In this document: in pieces, positions 30,870 through 35,602 of the stretch
Layout: each line of letters opens with the position of its first letter
Position numbering within the stretch: the first letter of the stretch is position 1
From: an uncultured Actinomycetes bacterium
GTDB lineage: Bacteria > Actinomycetota > Thermoleophilia > UBA2241
Assembly: GCA_963799395.1 (NCBI GenBank)
Contig: CAWCWZ010000063.1
Span: forward strand, 1,607 to 65,606
Direction of reading: 5' to 3'
Length of the DNA: 64,000 nucleotides
Notes under the pieces: generated by a model
What the model saw: the letters and a program-made list of their open reading frames with translations, nothing else
Told to the model about the DNA's origin: nothing
The model's database searches: none
Program-made: the position numbers and the translations under genes

Positions 30870-31670
30870 GTGAAGGGCAAGCTCAACCTGCGCGATTCGG
30901 GGATCGAGCTGACACGCTCGTGGCGCGGAGCGCTGCCCTCGGGGGCCCGCGACGCGCTGCGCCAGCTCTTCATCCTGCTCGCCTGCTATGCCGCCTACGA
31001 CGTGGCCAGGGTCGCGGTGCGCGGCCGCGACTCAGTGGCCATGGCCAACGCCCAGGGCGTCATCAACGCCGAGAAGGCCCTCCACATCTACGTCGAGCCT
31101 TTCATCCAGACCATGGCCAGCCACGTGCACGTGCTGGTCGAGTTCATGGACTGGTTCTACGCGAGCGTGCACCTCCCGGCGACGATCCTCATCCTCGTGT
31201 GGATCTACCTGTACCGCAACGAGACCTTCGCCTTCTTTCGCAACGTGTTCCTCACCATGAACCTGCTGGCGATGACGGTCTTCGCCCTGCTGCCCGTCGC
31301 GCCGCCGCGACTCGTACCGACCTCGGGCGTGGTCGACACGCTCTACCTGTACTCCACGAGCAACTACCGCAGCGGCGTCCTGTCCTTTGTCACCGACCAG
31401 TACGCCGCCCTGCCCAGCCTCCACATCGGCTACGCGCTGTTCCTCTCGCTCGCCATCTTCCTGCTCACCAAGAACCGCCTGGCGCGCGTGCTGGCGGCCG
31501 TGTACCCGGTCGTCGTGCTGGCCGCCATCATCATCACGGGCAACCACTTTCTGCTCGACGCGGTCGCCGGCGCGGTCGTGCTGGCCGTCGCCTTCGTCGC
31601 CAACTACGGCATCGCGCCGCAGGCCGCGCCCGAAGCCATCAGGGTGTACACACGCGGCGCCGACCGATGA
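30870..31670 (+). CDS. PAP2-superfamily membrane phosphatase (acid phosphatase / lipid phosphate phosphatase-like)
   Basis: Polytopic membrane protein with PAP2 motifs (…SLHIGYALFLSLAIF… and …TGNHFLLDAV…). The start is taken at an internal GTG; the ORF is open from 30801. It sits immediately upstream of the PIP synthase gene. Confidence 0.6.
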   Translation: MKGKLNLRDSGIELTRSWRGALPSGARDALRQLFILLACYAAYDVARVAVRGRDSVAMANAQGVINAEKALHIYVEPFIQTMASHVHVLVEFMDWFYASVHLPATILILVWIYLYRNETFAFFRNVFLTMNLLAMTVFALLPVAPPRLVPTSGVVDTLYLYSTSNYRSGVLSFVTDQYAALPSLHIGYALFLSLAIFLLTKNRLARVLAAVYPVVVLAAIIITGNHFLLDAVAGAVVLAVAFVANYGIAPQAAPEAIRVYTRGADR

Positions 31671-31677
31671 CCGGGGC

Positions 31678-32292
31678 GTGAGCCTCAAAGACTCCTACAC
31701 GGCGGGGGTCCGCCGGGCCGCGGTGCCGCTGGCCGGGCGCCTCGTTAACGGCGGCCGCGTCACGCCCAACGCCCTCACGCTCGGCGGCCTCGTCCTGAAC
31801 GTCGCCACCGTGCCGCTCATCCTCAGCGGGCACTTCATCTGGGCGGCCGTCGTGCTCCTGCTGGCCGGCGTCTGCGACATGCTCGACGGCGCCGTGGCGC
31901 GCCTCTCCGAGCAGGTCACGCCGTTCGGCGCCTTCCTCGACTCGACGAGCGACCGCCTCTCCGAGGGCGTCGTCTTCATGGCGATCGGCGTCTGGTTTGC
32001 CCGCAACGGCCACTACTGGGACCTCGCCGCCGTCTTCATCGCGCTCATGATGAGCTTTCTCGTCTCGTACACGCGGGCCCGGGCCGAAGCTCTCGGCCTC
32101 GAGTGCAAGGTCGGTCTGGCCTCGCGCCCCGAGCGCATCGTGCTGCTCCTGGTCGGCCTGGTCTTCGCCCGCTACGACGTGCTGGCCGTGATGGTCTGGG
32201 TGATCGCCGCGGCGACCACCTACACCGTCTTCCAGCGCATCCTCCACGTGCACCGCCAGCTCGCCGCCGGCAGGCGCGGGGCGACCGTCTGA
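31678..32292 (+). CDS. pgsA: CDP-alcohol phosphatidyltransferase (phosphatidylinositol-phosphate synthase, PgsA1-like)
   Basis: 205 aa with the CDP-OH-P transferase motif D(x2)DG(x2)AR…G(x3)D(x3)D (CDMLDGAVARLSEQVTPFGAFLDSTSDRLSE). It is adjacent to ino1, as in actinobacterial PI biosynthesis loci. Confidence 0.75.
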   Translation: MSLKDSYTAGVRRAAVPLAGRLVNGGRVTPNALTLGGLVLNVATVPLILSGHFIWAAVVLLLAGVCDMLDGAVARLSEQVTPFGAFLDSTSDRLSEGVVFMAIGVWFARNGHYWDLAAVFIALMMSFLVSYTRARAEALGLECKVGLASRPERIVLLLVGLVFARYDVLAVMVWVIAAATTYTVFQRILHVHRQLAAGRRGATV

Positions 32293-33585: not shown

Positions 33586-33745
33586 GGGCGGCGGCCCGCA
33601 GGGCCGCCGCACAGCGGGCGGCGCGGGCCGGGGAACGACGGGCGCTCCGCGAGGGGCAGGGGGAGTAGGGCCGGCCGGCGCTCAGCCGACACCGCGAGTC
33701 GTGGCCGGGCTTGGGGCAGTGGACGCAGCAGGCTACAGGATCGCG

Positions 33746-35602
33746 ATGCTCACGCCGTACGCATGGACGGTGCCCGGCGGCGTGAACAACCACATCGCGG
33801 CGCTCGCCGAGCGCTTCACGGCGCAGGGGCACCGGGTCACGATCATCGCCCCGAGCGACGACCGTCTGGCCGTCAAGGCGGCCCGCGAACGCGTGCGCGA
33901 GGTGCTGCTGGGCGAGCGCGACAGCCTGTTCGCGCCCGACGAGCCCTACCCGCGGCACTTCTTCGCCGGCGGCACCTTCTCGGTGCGCCACAACCGCTCG
34001 GTCAGCTACCTGTCGCCGCCGATCGATTTGCTGTCGAACGTCGACGTCGTGCTCGAAAACGAGGAGTTCGACGTTCTCCACATCCACGAGCCCTTCGTGC
34101 CCAGCCTGGGCTGGACGGCCATGAACCACGCCGAGTGCCCCATCGTCGCGACCTTCCACGCCAACTCCGAGCGCTTCTTCTGGTACTGGCTGGGCAAGCC
34201 CATCCTCAAGCGCGTGTTCCCCGTCTTCGACGGCGTGATCGCGGTCTCGCCGGCGGCTCGCGACACCGCGGCCCGCTACTTCGCCGGCCAGTTCCGCGTC
34301 ATCCCTAACGGCATCGACCTCACGCGTTTCTACCCAGGGTCCGCCCGCCGTCCCGGCCCGCCGCGGGTGCTGTACGTGGGCGGCGACTCGCGCCGCAAGG
34401 GCCTCGGTGTCCTGCTGCGCGCCCTGCGCTACGTGAGCGACGACACCCCACCCTTCGAGCTCGACGTGTGCGGCAGCGACCTTCACGCCGACAAATTCGC
34501 GCGCCTCGTGCCCGAGCGCTTCGCCGGTCGGGTCCATTTTCGCGGCCGCATCGCTCACGAACTGCTGCCGGTGTTCTACCAGGACGCCGACGTCTTCTGC
34601 GCGCCGTCGCTCGGCAACGAGTCGTTCGGCATCGTCCTGCTCGAGGCGATGGCCACCCGCACGGCCGTGCTGGCGTCGAACATTGACGGGTATCGCGACG
34701 TCGTGCGCGACGGCGCCGAGGGCCTGCTCATGCCGCCCCACAAGGCCCGCGACCTGGCCGCGGGCCTCGAGCGCCTGCTGCGCGACGCGCCGCTGCGCGA
34801 GGCCAGTGCCGAGCGCGGCCTCGAGACCGTGCGCCGTTACAGCTGGGAGATCGTCTCCGACGAGGTCATGCAGCTCTACCGCGACGTCATCCGCGGGCGC
34901 CTCAAGCGGCGCTCGGCGCCCCGGCGCCACCTCGAACCCGAGCTGTTCGCCGATTTCCACGTGCATACGAGCCACTCCAAGGACTGCGCCATGGAGGTCG
35001 AGGAGGTCCTCGAGCGGGCCTCCGAGGTGGGGCTCGACGTGATCGCCGTGACCGACCACAACGAGATCGCCGGCGGCCTCGAGGCGCTGGCCCTGGCCGA
35101 GCGCTACGGGGTCAGGGTGATCGTCGGCGAGGAGGTCAAGACCTCCGAGGGCGAGGTCATCGGCCTGTTCCTCACGGAGCGCATCCCGCCGGGCCTGACG
35201 TTCGCCCAGACGATCGCCCAGATCAAGGAGCAGGGCGGGATCGTCTACGTGCCGCACCCCTTCGACCGGCTGCACGCCGTACCGGGCAGCACGCTGCTCA
35301 AGGACAACCTGACCGACGTCGACGTGATCGAGGTCTTCAACTCGCGCATCGCCTATCCGGGCTTCAACGAAAAGGCGGTGCGCTTCGCCGAACGCCACCG
35401 CCTGACGGCCGCCGCCGGCAGCGACGCCCACGTCCTGCCGGGCCTCGGCACGGCGCTCACCGGCATGGGCGAGTTCACCGGCCCCGACGACTTCGTCGAA
35501 GCCCTGAGCGGCAGCCACATCATCCGCCGCCCCAAGAGCCTGCTCTACCTGCAGTCCCTCAAGCTCCTGCAGACGCCCCACGAAAGCGCCGCCCAGCGCT
35601 GA
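33746..35602 (+). CDS. GT4 glycosyltransferase (PimA/PimB-like) fused to a C-terminal PHP phosphoesterase domain
   Basis: GT4 Rossmann domains (MLTPYAWTVPGGVNNHI… and …EAMATRTAVLASNIDGYRDVV…) are followed in the same frame by PHP motifs (FHVHTSHSKDCAMEVEEV…AVTDHNEI…YVPHPFD…AGSDAH). Confidence 0.75.
   Translation: MLTPYAWTVPGGVNNHIAALAERFTAQGHRVTIIAPSDDRLAVKAARERVREVLLGERDSLFAPDEPYPRHFFAGGTFSVRHNRSVSYLSPPIDLLSNVDVVLENEEFDVLHIHEPFVPSLGWTAMNHAECPIVATFHANSERFFWYWLGKPILKRVFPVFDGVIAVSPAARDTAARYFAGQFRVIPNGIDLTRFYPGSARRPGPPRVLYVGGDSRRKGLGVLLRALRYVSDDTPPFELDVCGSDLHADKFARLVPERFAGRVHFRGRIAHELLPVFYQDADVFCAPSLGNESFGIVLLEAMATRTAVLASNIDGYRDVVRDGAEGLLMPPHKARDLAAGLERLLRDAPLREASAERGLETVRRYSWEIVSDEVMQLYRDVIRGRLKRRSAPRRHLEPELFADFHVHTSHSKDCAMEVEEVLERASEVGLDVIAVTDHNEIAGGLEALALAERYGVRVIVGEEVKTSEGEVIGLFLTERIPPGLTFAQTIAQIKEQGGIVYVPHPFDRLHAVPGSTLLKDNLTDVDVIEVFNSRIAYPGFNEKAVRFAERHRLTAAAGSDAHVLPGLGTALTGMGEFTGPDDFVEALSGSHIIRRPKSLLYLQSLKLLQTPHESAAQR

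Follow-up and report, generated by a model that had tools for sequence, protein, structure and literature searches.

The synthesis of phosphatidylinositol (PI) through phosphatidylinositol phosphate (PIP) is already known, together with its enzymes myo-inositol-1-phosphate synthase (MIPS), PIP synthase (PIPS) and the mannosyltransferase PimA, as is the presence of an AUR1-like gene in a bacterial inositol cluster, that of Bacteroides. In Bacteroides thetaiotaomicron this cluster comprises the AUR1-like BT_1522, the PIPS BT_1523, the PgpA-like PIP phosphatase BT_1525 and the MIPS BT_1526 (Heaver et al., 2022; PMC9246714). BT_1522 is a PI-dependent phosphoinositol transferase, the deletion of which abolishes phosphoinositol-dihydroceramide only and leaves PI intact, and deletion of BT_1525, a separate cytoplasmic enzyme, leads to accumulation of PIP (PMC9246714). 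In the mycobacterial PIPS, PgsA1, structure and mutation work has established that R94, S132, R152, R155 and R195 bind the phosphate of inositol-3-phosphate; the cavity of PIPS opens to the cytoplasm, and the mycobacterial PIP phosphatase was termed "yet-unidentified" in 2019 (PMC6506517). A literature search for an actinobacterial PIP phosphatase returned the Bacteroides work only and no assignment after 2019. Here a conserved inositol gene block is described from an uncultured bacterium of the class Thermoleophilia (UBA2241), located in a window of 64,000 nucleotides (nt), by which the whole stretch of DNA analysed is meant (assembly GCA_963799395.1, contig CAWCWZ010000063.1, positions 1,607 to 65,606). 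Positions 30870-35602 of the window hold four co-directional genes on the + strand, encoding a PAP2_3 membrane protein, PIPS, MIPS and a fusion of a PimA-like glycosyltransferase (GT4) with a PHP phosphoesterase domain.

As judged from its sequence, the block is the phosphatidylinositol operon of Thermoleophilia, and the reading favoured here is that the PHP domain acts as the PIP phosphatase and the PAP2_3 protein does something else, to which a probability of roughly 0.45, a little short of even, is assigned. A broader claim, doubtful when taken as a whole, would be that the PHP metalloenzyme is a class-wide PIP 3-phosphatase by virtue of its fusion to PimA, that the glycosyltransferase has decayed in most lineages to a dead or half-deleted PI-targeting module, and that the AUR1-like partner makes a second, so far undescribed phosphoinositol lipid or glycan of the envelope at the outer face of a Gram-positive organism not known to produce sphingolipids. 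An earlier, sequence-only reading of the window had reported four genes arranged head to tail on one strand, with the PAP2 stop codon 7 nt before the GTG of the pgsA-type gene, and both statements are exact: all four genes are on the + strand, and the 7 nt ccggggc separate the stop TGA (31668-31670) from the PIPS GTG at 31678. Its count of four genes has to be extended, since the block has a fifth member, a gene similar to uracil-DNA glycosylases (UDG). The features are as follows (aa, amino acids).

30685 to 30760, + strand: tRNA-Lys(CTT), found by ARAGORN and as Rfam tRNA (71 bits), at which the block has its 5' boundary in this genome.
30870 to 31670, + strand: AUR1-like PAP2_3 integral membrane protein, 266 aa from the GTG at 30870 (Pfam PF14378, 8e-41).
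31678 to 32292, + strand: PIPS/PgsA1-type CDP-alcohol phosphatidyltransferase, 204 aa (Pfam CDP-OH_P_transf, 3e-21).
32464 to 33585, + strand: myo-inositol-1-phosphate (1D-inositol-3-phosphate) synthase, MIPS, 373 aa (Pfam Inos-1-P_synth, 3e-37).
33701 to 35602, + strand: GT4-PHP fusion, 633 aa, with the Pfam domains GT4 N, GT4 C, PHP and PHP_C.
33701 to 34915, + strand: PimA-like GT4 (GT-B) moiety of the fusion, residues 1 to about 405.
34940 to 35602, + strand: PHP/PHP_C domain of the fusion, residues about 414-633, candidate PIP 3-phosphatase.
35679 to 36284, + strand: UDG-superfamily (family-4-like) gene, fifth member of the block (Pfam UDG, 3e-11).

The open reading frames (ORFs) of PAP2_3, MIPS and the fusion have a GC content at third codon positions of 0.92-0.96, the measure used as a coding filter, in a window of about 70% GC whose best protein matches carry Thermoleophilia labels; the PIPS ORF is not in the ORF list filtered in this way. 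An alternative ATG at 30801 would give a PAP2_3 protein of 289 aa, and most homologues are of 266 aa, with a start that corresponds to the GTG.

The need for a PIP phosphatase follows from the PIPS protein. Its best NCBIfam model is PIPSynth (NF045883; 153.7 bits, under the equivalog cut-off of 170), in a near tie with the archaetidylinositol-phosphate synthase model (152.1 bits, cut-off 180), and from its sequence it is taken to be a divergent member of the inositol-phosphate-using branch. The best matches in the PDB are the Renibacterium PIPS (5d92, 1.7e-27) and M. tuberculosis PgsA1 (6h53, 2e-22). The signature DxxDGxxAR...GxxxDxxxD is present (D67-MLD70-G-AVAR75 ... G84-AFLD88-STSD92) and invariant in six orthologues, and R93, S130, R150, R153 and R187 align with the PgsA1 residues listed above. 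Because every PgsA1 ligand of the inositol phosphate is kept, the product should be PIP, and a PIP phosphatase is thus required for PI, in agreement with the PIP-type pathway of the sequence-only reading. MIPS matches Pfam Inos-1-P_synth with 127 bits (cut-off 27) and the actinobacterial INO1 model TIGR03450 with 561 bits over positions 1-355 of 355, the equivalog cut-off of 638 not being reached; it is 67-91% identical over 58 related loci. PI and PI mannosides (PIMs), the end products that had been proposed, were reported by thin-layer chromatography in a cultured relative, Solirubrobacter deserti CPCC 204708, the source of one of the compared loci (L037; PMC10722151).

In the fusion protein, the GT4 moiety, described before as PimA/B-like, is closest to PimA: in a phmmer search of the PDB it matches M. 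smegmatis PimA (4n9w/2gej) over the whole length with an E-value of 7e-57 and 196 bits, against 97 bits for the next best solved GT4, 65 for MshA and 38 for PimB'. An AlphaFold2 model of the fusion (predicted local distance difference test score, pLDDT, 79) has PimA as the top Foldseek match (E 1e-26; target-normalised template modelling score, TM-score, 0.82-0.83), with 34% identity to the M. smegmatis enzyme in the structural alignment. The motifs PGGV, HIHEP, RRKG, ESFGIVLLEAMA and ESFG...LEAMA align with PimA, and the window GT4 has equivalents of all the donor-site and catalytic-cleft residues compared (the G15/G16 loop, K202, E274, E282 and the cleft residue H118; PMC9202250); among 31 close homologues E315 of the window protein is invariant and E307 nearly so (at least 90%). 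Other PimA features are not kept: R196 faces Gly in the phmmer alignment, where the adjacent Arg231/232 may substitute, Q18 is replaced by Asn, and loop 59-70 and the basic helix 77-RKVKK-81 are unconserved in a region that is acidic in the window protein. These are elements needed for the activity and membrane binding of PimA (PMC9202250). From the residues that it shares with PimA, the window GT4 would be expected to work in the same way, with mannose as the donor and the 2-OH as the acceptor. The predicted PI-binding part of PimA is its N-domain (residues 1-169 and 349-373), which includes a membrane-associated amphipathic helix (73-86); the group that the enzyme attacks is the inositol 2-OH (PMC9202250), the carbon of which neighbours the 3-phosphate of PIP (PMC6506517).

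Across relatives the fusion is found in three states. In the first, of about 630 aa and seen in this clade only (the window, L011, L016 and 30 metagenomic proteins of at least 55% identity), the PimA donor motifs are intact. The second, of about 630-650 aa, is that of most other Thermoleophilia (including L014, L018-L022, L027, L028, L033, L035, L038, L039, L041, L043, L044 and L047, and further L051, L052, L062, L067, L070, L071, L079, L085 and L086), in which the glycine loop and the equivalents of K202, E274 and E282 are replaced, e.g. by EERAAL and GVRPVPGILVRALA; with its donor motifs replaced, the glycosyltransferase is almost certainly dead, and if these organisms, like S. deserti, make PIMs, they must encode an active PimA at another site. 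In the third state, of about 425-490 aa and found in about 25 loci of Solirubrobacterales (including L024, L031, L036, L042, L045, L048, L049, L055, L058-L060, L063-L065, L074, L075, L078, L080 and L089), the C-terminal Rossmann domain is cleanly excised, and what is kept is the N-terminal Rossmann domain with HVHEPF (the equivalent of PimA H118), the last GT-B helix, which packs onto the N-domain, and PHP/PHP_C. A shorter subtype of this state is also without the equivalents of window residues ~50-110. Since the PHP ligands are kept through all three states, it is the PimA N-domain together with PHP on which selection has acted, and not glycosyl transfer.

The PHP half itself matches Pfam PHP with 1.9e-12 and 48 bits (cut-off 26) and PHP_C with 2.8e-11 and 43 bits (cut-off 21), and the NCBIfam CehA/McbA metallohydrolase domain with 79.4 bits. 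The set of metal ligands (H420, H422, D428, H453, E478, H519, D575 and H577), the absence of which would have spoken against the sequence-only suggestion of a phosphoesterase, is complete and is kept in 56-60 of the 60 fused orthologues aligned (ORFs of at least 420 aa); in all 60, PHP and at least the PimA N-domain share one ORF. A homologue search among 1.84 billion representatives found that relatives of at least 50% identity are nearly all fused, the stand-alone exceptions being mostly truncated matches. A match to PgpA was found neither among the block genes nor in the flanks, so that the PHP domain, if it does this step, would be a non-homologous replacement; and, as a soluble domain fused to a cytoplasmic peripheral enzyme, it would lie on the same side as PIPS and PimA, the latter using cytoplasmic GDP-mannose.

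Frameshifts in long-read metagenome-assembled genomes (L008-L010, L032, L081 and L068) split the GT4-PHP gene, and in L032 MIPS and the UDG-like gene too. The seemingly stand-alone PHP genes of L008-L010 were rejected for this reason, being a frameshifted fused gene with the GT4 pieces in other frames, and database entries of 250-280-aa "stand-alone PHP" proteins from such assemblies are therefore artefacts.

The conservation of the block was surveyed with one genome per species and PIPS as the anchor, which gave 80 loci in which the window proteins were compared by tblastn. Nearly all are from Thermoleophilia (Solirubrobacterales, Thermoleophilaceae, Gaiellaceae and Conexibacter). Of the 78 loci evaluable for PAP2_3, 64 have it immediately upstream of PIPS; downstream, with 62 evaluable, MIPS is present in 58, the PHP protein in 57 and, after the PHP gene, the UDG-like gene in 56. 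Where both sides can be evaluated (61 loci), PAP2_3 and PHP occur together in 48, PHP only in eight, PAP2_3 only in two (L057 and L037, the GT4 match of the latter being cut by the locus end) and neither in three, all labelled Acidobacteria/Terriglobales; the acidobacterial PIPS loci L083 and L087 have no linked phosphatase. At least 10 loci retain PIPS, MIPS and PHP and are without PAP2_3 within 7-8 kb of PIPS. The whole neighbourhood is kept in the close relatives L001 (67% PAP2_3 identity) and L006 (56%), and elsewhere the flanks vary by lineage, the block standing after PbpA-PknB in L012 and after an AI-2E transporter in L013. As the flanks change while the block persists, it is conserved as a unit and not merely as part of a frozen chromosome region, and the same gene order in dozens of genomes of the class indicates that the arrangement is not due to chance. 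The synteny on which the sequence-only reading depended is thus found in the relatives.

The PAP2_3 protein, named there a PAP2 phosphatase, does belong to the PAP2 superfamily of membrane proteins; its type, however, is specifically that of AUR1 and the inositol phosphorylceramide synthases. It matches PF14378 with 140 bits and the generic PAP2 Pfam model with 24.7 bits, under the cut-off of 27.2. For a profile of 29 homologues, the best sequence in the PDB is yeast Aur1 (3.8e-5), with APPW/PSLH/HHYFVD in Aur1 facing APPR/PSLH/NHFLLD. In these homologues P142, A144-P146, P182, S183, H185, N225, H226 and D230 are invariant, and R147, where Aur1 has Trp, is nearly so (at least 90%). H185, H226 and D230 align with the catalytic triad H255, H294 and D298 of Aur1, the termini of which are cytosolic and the triad near the luminal surface (PMC12122681). 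The AlphaFold2 model (pLDDT 85) has the Aur1 structures 9vj4 and 9ivc as top Foldseek matches, ahead of LpxE and B. subtilis PgpB (ranks 3 and 4) and SMSr, at TM-scores of 0.46-0.49. The motifs of PAP2 phosphatases are C1 (KxxxxxxRP), C2 (PSGH) and C3 (SRxxxxxHxxxD), of which the C1 Lys/Arg and the C3 Arg hold the phosphomonoester. The window protein has PSLH (C2) and NHxxxD (C3 His/Asp) only, is without C1 and has Ile at the position of the C3 Arg. It has six long helices, with Lys/Arg concentrated at both termini and in the short loops at 116 and 200-202, and APPR, PSLH and NHxxxD lie on the opposite loops; this layout fits that of Aur1, and the active site is accordingly predicted to lie outside. 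On its sequence and model, the protein is probably an outward-facing phosphoinositol transferase and less likely a PIP phosphatase. With 28 bits against a cut-off of 480 for the Bacteroides phosphoinositol-dihydroceramide synthase model (NF052609, PhinosDhcerSyn), it is not an orthologue of BT_1522, and a literature search on PAP2_3/PF14378 found nothing relevant.

Three loci (L023, L043 and L067) have a second PAP2_3 paralogue 2-3 kb upstream of the copy adjacent to PIPS. Remote PAP2_3 homologues (at most 40% identity; L003-L005, L007 and the P0061 contig) were set aside, as their contexts have no link to inositol genes and give no functional hint.

From these domain identities, conserved residues, fusion states and synteny, all obtained by comparison of sequences and structures, we infer the substrates, topology and phosphatase assignment of the following pathway. 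MIPS, by its family membership, would convert glucose-6-phosphate into inositol-3-phosphate, which PIPS, given its conserved catalytic and inositol-phosphate-binding residues, would join with CDP-diacylglycerol to form PIP at the cytoplasmic face. The PHP domain, docked at the membrane and the inositol head group by the PimA N-domain, would then strip the 3-phosphate of PIP to yield PI. In the window clade, the intact PimA moiety of the same polypeptide would mannosylate the adjacent 2-OH, giving the monomannoside PIM1, and the order of this step and the PHP step may be reversed. A later step, most likely at the outer face, would fall to the AUR1-like PAP2_3 protein, which is translationally coupled to PIPS and would use PI as the phosphoinositol donor to some acceptor.

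The sequence-only reading had held that either the PAP2 protein or the PHP domain could supply the dephosphorylation of PIP. Such parity is not borne out by the comparison: the active-site make-up of PAP2_3 (AUR1-like, with the triad only), its predicted outward topology and the parallel with Bacteroides, where the AUR1-like neighbour is a transferase, favour the PHP domain for the dephosphorylation and a PI-consuming role for PAP2_3. A number of observations nevertheless weigh against the PHP assignment, and the alternatives are built on them. PAP2_3 is, with its 7-nt spacer, more tightly linked to PIPS than PHP is, and its topology is a manual estimate from the AlphaFold2 helices and charge counts. 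An outward-facing PAP2 enzyme can serve a substrate made in the cytoplasm, as PgpB of E. coli does with phosphatidylglycerol phosphate (PGP). If PAP2_3 were the PIP phosphatase, acting PgpB-like on a lipid phosphomonoester, and PHP had another job, the translational coupling to PIPS, the position directly upstream of it in most loci and the lipid phosphatases in other branches of the superfamily, with LpxE and PgpB among the structural matches, would all be accounted for; the nearly invariant R147 and the two loci with PAP2_3 and no nearby PHP (in L037 possibly cut by the locus end) point the same way. It is nonetheless unlikely, as the His/His/Asp triad without the C1 motif and the C3 Arg is typical of Aur1/SMS transferases (PMC12122681), the active site is predicted outside, opposite to the cytoplasmic face where PIP arises and PI is used (PMC6506517), PAP2_3 is missing near PIPS in the loci mentioned above that retain PIPS, MIPS and PHP, and the PIPS-adjacent homologue of Bacteroides is not a PIP phosphatase (PMC9246714). 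The same active site, which speaks against monoesterase chemistry, makes it very unlikely that PAP2_3 and PHP both dephosphorylate PIP, redundantly and on the two membrane faces, the more so because class-wide retention of two redundant enzymes is rare; the catalytic residues of both are intact, most of the fully evaluable loci hold both genes, and in some only one of the two has been lost, as this arrangement would have it. PgpA/C and PgpB of E. coli dephosphorylate PGP redundantly in this manner.

Other points against the PHP assignment concern nucleic acids, lipids not being an inherent target of the PHP family. The closest solved relatives of the PHP half are the phosphoesterases 3e0f and 2yb1, at the level of motif similarity only (E 6e-9 to 3e-7), which we take to be nucleotide phosphoesterases; the substrates of the nearest characterised relatives are nucleotides or nucleic acids, and weak NCBIfam matches are to 3',5'-nucleoside bisphosphate phosphatase and RNase RNM. 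The next tier of homologues, of 39-47% identity, consists of stand-alone PHP/PHP_C proteins of 215-235 aa, and the two with a readable context (L091 and L092, one from a Dehalococcoidia metagenome-assembled genome) have a housekeeping neighbourhood of EF-P, formyltransferase and tRNA-synthetase genes, with no inositol genes. In most fused orthologues (e.g. L016, L024, L035 and L060) a conserved helix, L[KR][LF]L[QE]T, leads into a polybasic tail, of 27 aa and net charge +10 in the median, which could fit nucleic acid as well as an anionic membrane. In L040 (4794-6704) and L069 (8867-10705), two divergent lineages, most PHP metal ligands are lost and the C-terminal domain is not recognised by Pfam; both keep PIPS (L040 MIPS too) with no nearby PAP2_3, and L069, labelled Bifidobacteriaceae, is without MIPS in the locus. 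A degenerate PHP and no nearby PAP2_3 where PIPS is kept mean that a further PIP phosphatase may exist in some lineages. The AlphaFold2 model of the fusion adds little here, as its linker (404-412) has a pLDDT below 50 and the predicted TM-score is 0.65, and the interdomain geometry is too uncertain for use. Finally, the UDG-like gene accompanies PHP as regularly as the inositol genes do, and in L009 and L010 its start adjoins or overlaps the stop of PHP.

These observations would be united if PHP and the UDG-like protein were a nucleotide or nucleic-acid pair, for repair or turnover, fused and linked to pimA by chance, and the PIP phosphatase were encoded at an unlinked site. The UDG-like protein, however, is far under the NCBIfam cut-offs (TIGR00758, 54 bits against 125) and aligns with family-4 UDGs over residues 22-132 only, with the C-terminal third, including the region of motif B, HP(S/A), unaligned. 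It keeps the Cys pattern of the family-4 Fe-S site, a CxxC and two more Cys, but has KYRVQP in place of motif A, GE(A/G)PG; the loss of this motif makes a classical repair pair with PHP doubtful. Such a pair would also leave unexplained why PHP is always joined to the N-domain of PimA, its predicted PI-binding part, even where the donor half is degenerate or missing; moreover, where the flanks differ, the block stays with PIPS and MIPS, and the C-terminal tail of the window protein is short and neutral. It is considered rather unlikely. A soluble product fares worse: that PHP is a soluble inositol-monophosphate phosphatase (IMPase), with the GT4 N-domain binding inositol phosphate, or that the product of the cluster is not PI but a soluble compound derived from inositol (di-myo-inositol phosphate, for instance, or a precursor of mycothiol), is highly improbable. 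In its favour, the operon includes MIPS, inositol phosphate is a possible ligand of GT4 N-domains, such as that of MshA, and the MshA model TIGR03449 gives a partial match of 88 bits; its cut-off is, however, 462, the GT4 is closer to PimA than to MshA, the transferase aligns nearly over its full length with the membrane PIPS of Renibacterium and M. tuberculosis, and a soluble IMPase would draw on the substrate that PIPS needs. Two specific forms were rejected: di-myo-inositol-phosphate synthesis, as there is no CDP-inositol cytidylyltransferase (IPCT/DIPPS model 52 bits, cut-off 580), and MshA with the missing MshA2 phosphatase of mycothiol synthesis, the GT4 being much nearer to PimA.

The assignment of the PIP phosphatase step to PHP thus offers a specific, testable candidate for a reaction for which the PgpA-like BT_1525 is the only assigned bacterial enzyme. 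As far as the literature searched shows, the class-wide PimA-PHP fusion, the decay series down to N-domain plus PHP, and the proposal of PHP as the PIP phosphatase of Thermoleophilia are new. The series from an active fusion through a dead glycosyltransferase to the N-domain only would clearly illustrate how an enzyme domain can be retained in nature as a substrate-targeting module. Should the AUR1-like protein prove to be a transferase, the Thermoleophilia, abundant in soil, would carry unrecognised inositol-phosphate lipids or wall polymers. The relevance for M. tuberculosis is indirect, transfer to mycobacteria being unproven.

In the surroundings, topA, tmk, holB and a PSP1-domain gene lie 5' of the block, and a small HMA (copper-chaperone-like) gene (30337-30618, +), present also in L001 and L006, stands with the tRNA-Lys between the PSP1 gene and the block. 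An Rfam scan of 30000-37000 returned nothing but this tRNA, with no regulatory RNA in the gaps; no sigma-70-like promoters were found in the block gaps, where terminator-like matches are at background level, and a scan of the remaining window gave no sphingolipid or additional PIM genes. Farther away, 7730-17145 encodes a Ser/Thr kinase, a PP2C phosphatase, FtsW/RodA, a PBP transpeptidase and a PASTA-domain PknB-like kinase, a typical actinobacterial division and signalling cluster. A 236-aa ORF at 46753-47463 (+) matches the C-terminal part of Hsp70 only (profile positions 403-599) and could be a truncated or mis-started dnaK, and the AT skew is unusually high at 44-52 kb of the window.

When compared with known systems, the PHP half resembles the TrpH/YciV and Cv1693-type phosphoesterases (3e0f, 2yb1) in the PHP signature, the complete metal ligands and the PHP_C extension. 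The known members of these types have nucleotides or short nucleic acids as substrates; to our knowledge, no member acts on a lipid head group or is joined to a glycosyltransferase. The window shares with mycobacteria, where the counterparts are PgsA1 (Rv2612c), PimA (Rv2610c) and Ino1, the PIPS motif with its inositol-phosphate ligands and a GT4 nearest to PimA, and differs in that the basic patch 77-RKVKK-81 of PimA is unconserved. In the mycobacterial operon the acyltransferase PatA lies between pgsA1 and pimA, ino1 is elsewhere, PimA is unfused and an AUR1-like gene is not adjacent. With yeast Aur1 (9ivc, 9vj3 and 9vj4; PMC12122681) the PAP2_3 protein has in common the triad, PxAPP[W/R], PSLH and, as predicted for the window protein, a six-helix core with cytoplasmic termini, but the relation is remote (E 4e-5; TM-score 0.46-0.49), the N-terminal two-helix domain is missing and Arg takes the place of Trp in APPW. 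No Kei1-like partner for the PAP2_3 protein was seen. We know of no sphingolipid acceptors in Thermoleophilia. The closest parallel is that of Bacteroides, where likewise an AUR1-like gene adjoins PIPS, a PIP phosphatase and MIPS are in the cluster, PI is made via PIP and the gene order is partly the same; the window differs in having PHP fused to PimA, which is proposed here to fill the role of the PgpA-like phosphatase, in having a mannosyltransferase and a UDG-like gene added, and in being without the GtrA-like gene. By this analogy, the Thermoleophilia block would be the Bacteroides design with a non-homologous phosphatase.

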